The notes under the pieces were generated by a model. The model was not told the origin of the DNA, ran no database searches, and was given only the letters and a program-made list of their open reading frames with translations. From the NCBI RefSeq assembly GCF_013122565.1, contig NZ_CP053258.1: DNA of 64,000 nucleotides; one strand, 5' to 3'. Made by a program: the position numbers and the translations under genes. Of this stretch, positions 37,090 through 37,218 are shown one piece after another. Numbering within the stretch: position 1 is the stretch's first letter; every line of letters begins with the position of its first letter. The stretch is from Escherichia coli. GTDB lineage: Bacteria; Pseudomonadota; Gammaproteobacteria; Enterobacterales; Enterobacteriaceae.

Positions 37090-37134
37090 GTATTTCAGTC
37101 TCGATTAACAGATAACGCAAAATTGCTGTGTTCT

Positions 37135-37162
37135 TCAGATTCGTTTTATAGCGCGAAGTTCC
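37135..37162 (-). promoter_or_regulatory. Sigma-E-type promoter upstream of degP
   Basis: Minus strand reads cGGAACTTcgcgctataaaacgaaTCTGAag: GGAACTT then 16 nt then TCTGA, 45-70 nt upstream of the degP ATG. Confidence 0.6.
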
Positions 37163-37218
37163 GAACTAAAGTTTCTGCAAAAGGTAAAAATTTATTGTTC
37201 GTCTTTACAAAAGCCTGG

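Follow-up and report, generated by a model that had tools for sequence, protein, structure and literature searches.

The dgt-degP intergenic region of Escherichia coli: a known sigma-E promoter with a conserved upstream block and a fourU leader

The stretch of Escherichia coli chromosome analyzed here (64,000 nucleotides, henceforth the window) contains, according to its map of open reading frames, a non-coding interval at 37090-37218 that corresponds exactly to the 129-bp dgt-degP spacer. A 505-aa ORF ends at 37219 and a 474-aa ORF starts at 37089. NCBIfam assigned the former to the dGTPase Dgt (896 bits) and the latter, over its full length, to DegP (935 bits), with CdaR encoded by the next gene downstream of degP, yielding the gene order dgt-degP-cdaR. 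A 321-nt query across the spacer matched 5,424 of 5,426 complete E. coli genomes, every one of them annotated dgt/degP, with identity of at least 99% in 5,373 genomes. Together with the NCBIfam score, this annotation bears out the name degP that a preliminary description of the region, made from the sequence alone, had given to the gene. Positions in the window were related to those of E. coli K-12 through the conversion window = 217973 - K-12 coordinate. The features of the region are compiled in Table 1.

Table 1. Features of the dgt-degP region in the window, with their mean identity to the window in the cross-genus alignment
Feature	Coordinates	Strand	Mean identity to window	Remarks
dgt 3' coding sequence			81%	identity over the part in the footprint alignment
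dgt stop codon TAA	37219..37221	-		upstream boundary of the spacer
dgt stop and linker	37221-37211		42%
Block of highest conservation in the spacer, TTGTAAAGAcgaaCAATAAATTTTTACcTTTT	37179..37210	-		candidate target of CpxR~P, at -81 to -50 from A37129
Upstream sub-block	37210-37202		99%
Exact GTAAA pentamer (CpxR half-site consensus)	37204..37208	- (degP sense)		-79 to -75; invariant in 80/80
Upstream sub-block	37197-37184		97%
Exact GTAAA pentamer, TTTAC in degP sense	37184..37188	+		-59 to -55; invariant in 80/80
Linker	37178-37163		60%
Sigma-E -35 element GGAACTT	37156..37162	-	97%	exact heptamer
16-nt spacer cgcgctataaaacgaa	37140..37155	-	81%	contains TATAAA/TAAAAC; 37154/37153 (GC) dimorphic in E. 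coli
Sigma-E -10 element TCTGA	37135..37139	-	95%	conserved C is 37138; 3/5 to TCAAA
Discriminator AGAAC (5 nt)			51%
Putative start A	37129	-		plausible range 37133-37128; from Salmonella homology and 5' end of the Rfam model
degP 5' UTR, HtrA fourU RNA thermometer RF02700	37084..37129	-		hairpin 37125-37096
degP coding sequence, 474 aa	35665..37089	-		gene driven by the promoter; ATG 37089-37087

The 129-bp spacer is identical to that of strain SK1144, the closest complete genome, and over 321 nt the two sequences differ by a single synonymous substitution at 37003, in degP codon 29 (ACA in the window, ACT in SK1144). Elsewhere in the window, Rfam located a t44 RNA (RF00127) at 28841-28927 on the minus strand (83.5 bits).

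Promoters recognized by sigma-E are defined by a -35 element GGAACTT(TT) and a -10 element (T/C)GGTCAAAA with core TCAAA, separated by a spacer for which a length of 16 nt is strongly preferred and followed by a discriminator of 5/6 nt (Rhodius et al., PMC1312014). The C in the -10 element is invariant (PMC1851643), and sigma-E region 4 has been crystallized on GGAACTT (PMC8103513). The minus strand around the promoter, read over 36800-37500, runs ...gttcGGAACTTcgcgctataaaacgaaTCTGAagaacacagc..., and re-reading it returned exactly the coordinates of the preliminary description, which had placed GGAACTT and TCTGA on this strand, 16 nt apart, at 37135-37162. The motif lies on the coding strand of degP, 46 nt upstream of the start codon at 37089. 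As for the claim that it matches the sigma-E consensus, the -35 element is a perfect GGAACTT with its GAAC core, the spacing is the preferred 16 nt within the 15-19 nt range and the conserved C of the -10 element is present, but TCTGA reproduces only the T, C and final A of TCAAA. An older TCTGA consensus was drawn from rpoH P3 and degP themselves, and this part of the match is therefore partly circular.

A search of both strands of the 64-kb window for GGAACTT-N15-17-TCTGA yielded this single match, versus 0.01 expected from 100 dinucleotide-preserving shuffles, just one of which contained a match. Short bipartite motifs of this kind do arise by chance, and a relaxed version of the pattern produced three matches in the window versus 1.3 expected. 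The relaxed scan, used as a positive control, failed to recover the sigma-E start region published for lpxD (K-12 200960, ~17013 in the window), and simple consensus scans hence overlook weaker sigma-E promoters; degP is an unusually good consensus match. A relaxed match, GGAACTA-N16-TCGAA, maps to 21933-21960 on the minus strand, inside cdsA and ~500 nt upstream of rseP (K-12 ~196040), and could either drive rseP-bamA as an internal sigma-E promoter or have arisen by chance. Another, GGAACTT-N17-TCTTA, maps to 57036-57064 on the plus strand, inside sfsA and directed toward dksA, ~300 nt downstream, and is probably a chance match.

The conservation of the region was analyzed on degP loci from other Enterobacteriaceae. 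Eighty such loci, from ~25 genera, were fetched, and 79 of them were aligned with the window over the 200 nt upstream of each degP start codon, generating an alignment of 80 sequences (78 distinct). The -35 heptamer was GGAACTT in 62 sequences, GGAACTA in 12 and TGAACTT in six, with the GAACT core present in all 80. The -10 pentamer was TCTGA in 67 sequences, TCTTA in seven, TCTCA in three and shifted or otherwise different in the remaining three, and the spacer between both elements measured 16 nt in 77 sequences and 17 nt in three. As in the core sigma-E regulon, the promoter elements are hence conserved in related genomes, with mean identities to the window of 97% (-35) and 95% (-10) versus 42-60% for the linkers. 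The combination of constrained elements and fixed spacing with drifting DNA in between therefore provides independent evidence of a functional motif.

These results are in agreement with published work, which is the source of the sigma-E dependence referred to here. Overexpression of rpoE induced degP 56-fold, the strongest response of all genes, and degP transcription has been called sigma-E dependent (PMC2731931). The htrA gene was the second one shown to be transcribed by RpoE (PMC8103513), and the degP promoter is among 60 natural sigma-E promoters characterized in vitro and in vivo, where it was found to be active at basal sigma-E levels, was placed in the competitive Cluster 1 and behaved as an outlier to the model of in vivo promoter strength (PMC3326320). 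Full-text literature searches with strings of the promoter sequence matched only a knockout primer. The envelope-stress control of degP anticipated in the preliminary description is thus backed by both the cross-genus conservation of the elements and the published sigma-E dependence of the K-12 promoter. The possibility that GGAACTT-N16-TCTGA is a chance match devoid of promoter function is vanishingly small and can be regarded as effectively refuted: only 0.01 occurrences of the exact pattern are expected in the window, the match lies on the right strand and at the right distance from degP, it is conserved over ~25 genera while the adjoining DNA drifts, and direct evidence has been published for a K-12 promoter with the same -35 and -10 elements. 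The interval is, in sum, the textbook sigma-E promoter of degP, and as such it is already known.

Comparison with the degP promoter of E. coli K-12 MG1655, where the gene order is likewise dgt-degP-cdaR, revealed that 127 of the 129 spacer bases are the same; these include the -35 and -10 elements, the GTAAA block upstream of them and the entire leader. Only 37154/37153 differ, inside the sigma-E spacer, where K-12 presents AG and the window GC (CAGG versus CGCG). With a 71-nt query centered on this dimorphism, 4,020 of 5,424 genomes (~74%) matched at 99% identity or above and 1,404 (26%) at 95-99%, and most of the rows sampled from the latter group were 97.2% identical, which corresponds to two mismatches, as in the K-12 CAGG form. 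Because the group at 99% or above comprises 4,020 of the 5,424 genomes, the CGCG allele of the window is the majority form. As judged from these identity classes, the CGCG/CAGG dimorphism is common natural variation across E. coli.

The preliminary description had tied the promoter assignment to a transcription start about 7 nt downstream of TCTGA. Three htrA starts have been mapped in Salmonella, with UTRs of 40, 47 and 215/449 nt; the 40-nt one is specific to stress and the longer ones are constitutive at low level (PMC5602114). The Salmonella htrA promoter (locus L014) has the same -35 element, 16-nt spacer and TCTGA as the window, with the 40-nt leader at the same position, so that the stress-specific start maps to A37129, with TCTGA ending 6 nt before it. 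The first position of the Rfam HtrA thermometer model likewise falls at 37129. In E. coli, tagRNA-seq under sigma-E induction detected a run of 28 tagged nucleotides in a row at degP. The degP start reported earlier lies within this run and was interpreted there as a processing site, and transcription was predicted to begin at K-12 180840/42, equivalent to 37133/37131 in the window and hence 2-4 nt after TCTGA (PMC7075262). These predicted starts are closer to the -10 element than the usual 5-6 nt, a distance that A37129, a purine, fits by homology. The expected distance of ~7 nt was thus approximately reproduced by the Salmonella homology and the Rfam model (6 nt), and less closely by the tagRNA-seq prediction. 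Since all the estimates fall 2-6 nt after TCTGA, they do not contradict the promoter assignment. On this basis, we infer that the exact +1 of the source strain is most likely A37129.

Many genera, including Klebsiella, Kluyvera, Atlantibacter, Pseudocitrobacter and others (loci L013, L022, L028, L045, L071, L078 and others), carry ~7 extra bases (e.g. TAGTCAC) between the -10 element and the conserved ACACAGCAA leader, a segment that corresponds to 37130-37134 in the window. Leaders that begin at the sigma-E start would therefore vary in length from genus to genus.

The Salmonella starts also bear on the origin of basal degP transcription. A sigma-70 or sigma-S promoter overlapping the sigma-E spacer, with TATAAA/TAAAAC (37150-37143) as its -10-like element, could provide or add to this basal level, with read-through from dgt adding more. 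In favor of such a scheme, Salmonella htrA has constitutive, low-level transcripts with UTRs of 47 and 215/449 nt (PMC5602114); the equivalent hexamer is TAAAAT in 22 of the 80 sequences, including Salmonella, with its 47-nt-UTR start, and TATAAA is conserved in most genera. Scans of 36900-37450 for intrinsic terminators and sigma-70-like promoters found neither, which leaves read-through from dgt possible but provides no sigma-70 site. Furthermore, the hexamer of the window, TAAAAC (37148-37143), ends in C instead of the key T and is not accompanied by a -35-like hexamer at 16-18 nt, the spacer hexamer is variable across genera, and an overlapping promoter would act in addition to the sigma-E promoter and not in its place. 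We therefore regard this scheme as very unlikely. TATAAA/TAAAAC may be an overlapping sigma-70-type -10 element that is degraded in E. coli, the TAAAAC hexamer being at most a minor supplementary promoter, and the 47-nt-UTR start of Salmonella, whose hexamer is TAAAAT, may have no counterpart in the window.

Downstream of the predicted start, the degP leader matched the HtrA fourU RNA thermometer family RF02700 over model positions 1-46 of 46, with a covariance model score of 77 bits versus a gathering score of 52. In the corresponding hairpin, UUUU (37122-37119) is paired with the GAGA of the Shine-Dalgarno sequence (37102-37099), with a bulged C. The minimum free energy fold reproduces the thermometer hairpin, except for an A.C mismatch, at both 30 and 37 C but no longer at 42 C. 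The E. coli hairpin is weak (-3.0 kcal/mol at 37 C, z +1.3). Its Salmonella counterpart has a U where E. coli has C37098, turning the A.C mismatch of the lower stem into an A-U pair and lowering the energy to -5.8 kcal/mol at the same temperature. Across 61 loci, the hairpin positions were paired in 75% of cells, versus 29-55% when the structure was slid along the alignment, but this value equals that of shuffles; likewise, no covariation signal above shuffles was detected across these loci, with double changes in just two pairs. The thermometer behavior discussed here is drawn from the literature, in which temperature-dependent function has been demonstrated by experiment for Salmonella only.

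Upstream of the sigma-E elements, the preliminary description had proposed that the remainder of the spacer would hold Cpx sites. The Cpx dependence of degP comes from published work, in which it is called a well-known CpxR target (PMC2731931, PMC8831704); in one study overexpression of CpxR did not induce degP, which was attributed there to limiting sigma-E (PMC2731931). The consensus for CpxR is GTAAA-N5-GTAAA (PMC8831704), and versions of it that allow N4-8 spacing and degenerate halves, ACAAA among them, have been quoted as well (PMC3158067). Allowing up to two mismatches, no tandem GTAAA-N5-GTAAA was found in the spacer (37090-37218); the best tandem readings were GTAAAgacgaACAAT, with 7/10 matching positions, and an antisense N6 site with 8/10. 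In the whole window the same pattern returned 76 matches versus 44 +/- 7 expected from shuffles, an excess that probably reflects base composition or codon usage, and the loose CpxR consensus is therefore not discriminating. The Cpx sites proposed in the preliminary description thus find partial support: the canonical tandem box is absent at up to two mismatches, but an invariant inverted pair of CpxR half-sites lies in the expected part of the spacer. The most conserved DNA of the spacer, TTGTAAAGA..CAATAAATTTTTAC (37210-37184), contains two exact GTAAA pentamers that are inverted relative to each other, both present in all 80 sequences, as would be expected of half-sites in a CpxR~P-regulated promoter. 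Arranged as GTAAA-N15-TTTAC (37208-37184, -79 to -55), they are separated by a 15-nt gap that is also invariant in the 80 sequences, and this arrangement occurs once in the window versus 0.06 expected.

An alternative interpretation of the conserved block (37210-37179) is that it constitutes an UP element, contacted by the C-terminal domains of the alpha subunits, or that a different DNA-binding or DNA-bending protein occupies it, with Cpx control residing elsewhere, for instance at GTAAATTACCGTCAG inside the dgt coding sequence. This 15-mer (37344-37358, minus strand) is a two-mismatch match to the tandem CpxR consensus, and its Salmonella counterpart was listed as the degP CpxR motif in a Gibbs-sampling study. 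The choice was purely computational, however, and the motif lies within coding sequence. In line with an UP element, the T/A-tracts at -61 to -50 coincide with the conserved A/T-rich UP subsites of sigma-E promoters at -48/-49 and -57/-58 (PMC1312014), the effects of which are predicted by counts of A/T-tracts (PMC3326320), and the spacer is devoid of a canonical tandem CpxR box at up to two mismatches. Conversely, the invariant GTAAAGA at -79 to -73 is beyond the usual range of UP elements, and two exact CpxR half-sites at a fixed 15-nt gap in every aligned sequence resemble the operator of a DNA-binding protein more than a generic A/T-tract. The CpxR consensus, moreover, tolerates N4-8 spacing and ACAAA-like halves (PMC3158067), and the degP half-site is followed after N5 by ACAAT. 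On balance, this alternative appears unlikely, but the T-tract of the block possibly has the character of a distal UP element. Based on its invariant half-sites, we infer that the upstream block is probably a target of CpxR~P.

Taken together, these data make it highly probable that the interval is the regulatory region of degP (htrA), consisting of a sigma-E core promoter, a likely CpxR~P block upstream of it and a fourU leader downstream. On this reading, RNA polymerase carrying sigma-E (RpoE, sigma-24), the sigma factor of extracytoplasmic stress, would recognize GGAACTT via sigma region 4 and TCTGA via region 2, across a spacer of optimal length, and transcription would start at or very near A37129, producing a 40-nt leader. 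Envelope stress would free sigma-E from RseA and thereby increase degP mRNA. Phosphorylated CpxR would likely dock at the -81 to -50 block, conveying the Cpx input to the same promoter, and the T-tract of this block may double as an UP element. The leader would fold into the HtrA fourU hairpin, partly masking the Shine-Dalgarno sequence, and open with heat.

DegP is a central periplasmic protease and chaperone in envelope quality control, with a promoter at which the sigma-E and Cpx stress pathways converge. The main value of the present analysis is as a calibration point, in that a textbook sigma-E promoter was correctly recognized from sequence alone, to which it makes three modest additions. 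The most constrained DNA of the spacer is a GTAAA...TTTAC block unlike the canonical tandem CpxR box; a common CGCG/CAGG dimorphism in the sigma-E spacer has been documented; and the rest of the interval corresponds to a known RNA thermometer, whose E. coli version is intrinsically weaker than that of Salmonella.

The arrangement of the putative CpxR~P target can be compared with that of canonical CpxR~P-activated promoters, such as those of cpxP, ppiA, yccA and others. The degP promoter, which belongs to an accepted member of the Cpx regulon, resembles them in presenting exact GTAAA pentamers upstream of the -35 element. In canonical promoters, however, the half-sites are direct repeats 5 nt apart, whereas the exact pentamers of degP are inverted and 15 nt apart. 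It is conceivable, if distinctly unlikely, that GTAAA-N15-TTTAC is a true operator for a non-canonical mode of binding by CpxR, in a head-to-head or two-dimer configuration, or by an unrecognized factor, which would activate an ECF-sigma holoenzyme from ~-67. Canonical CpxR promoters depend on sigma-70, whereas that of degP depends on an ECF sigma factor.
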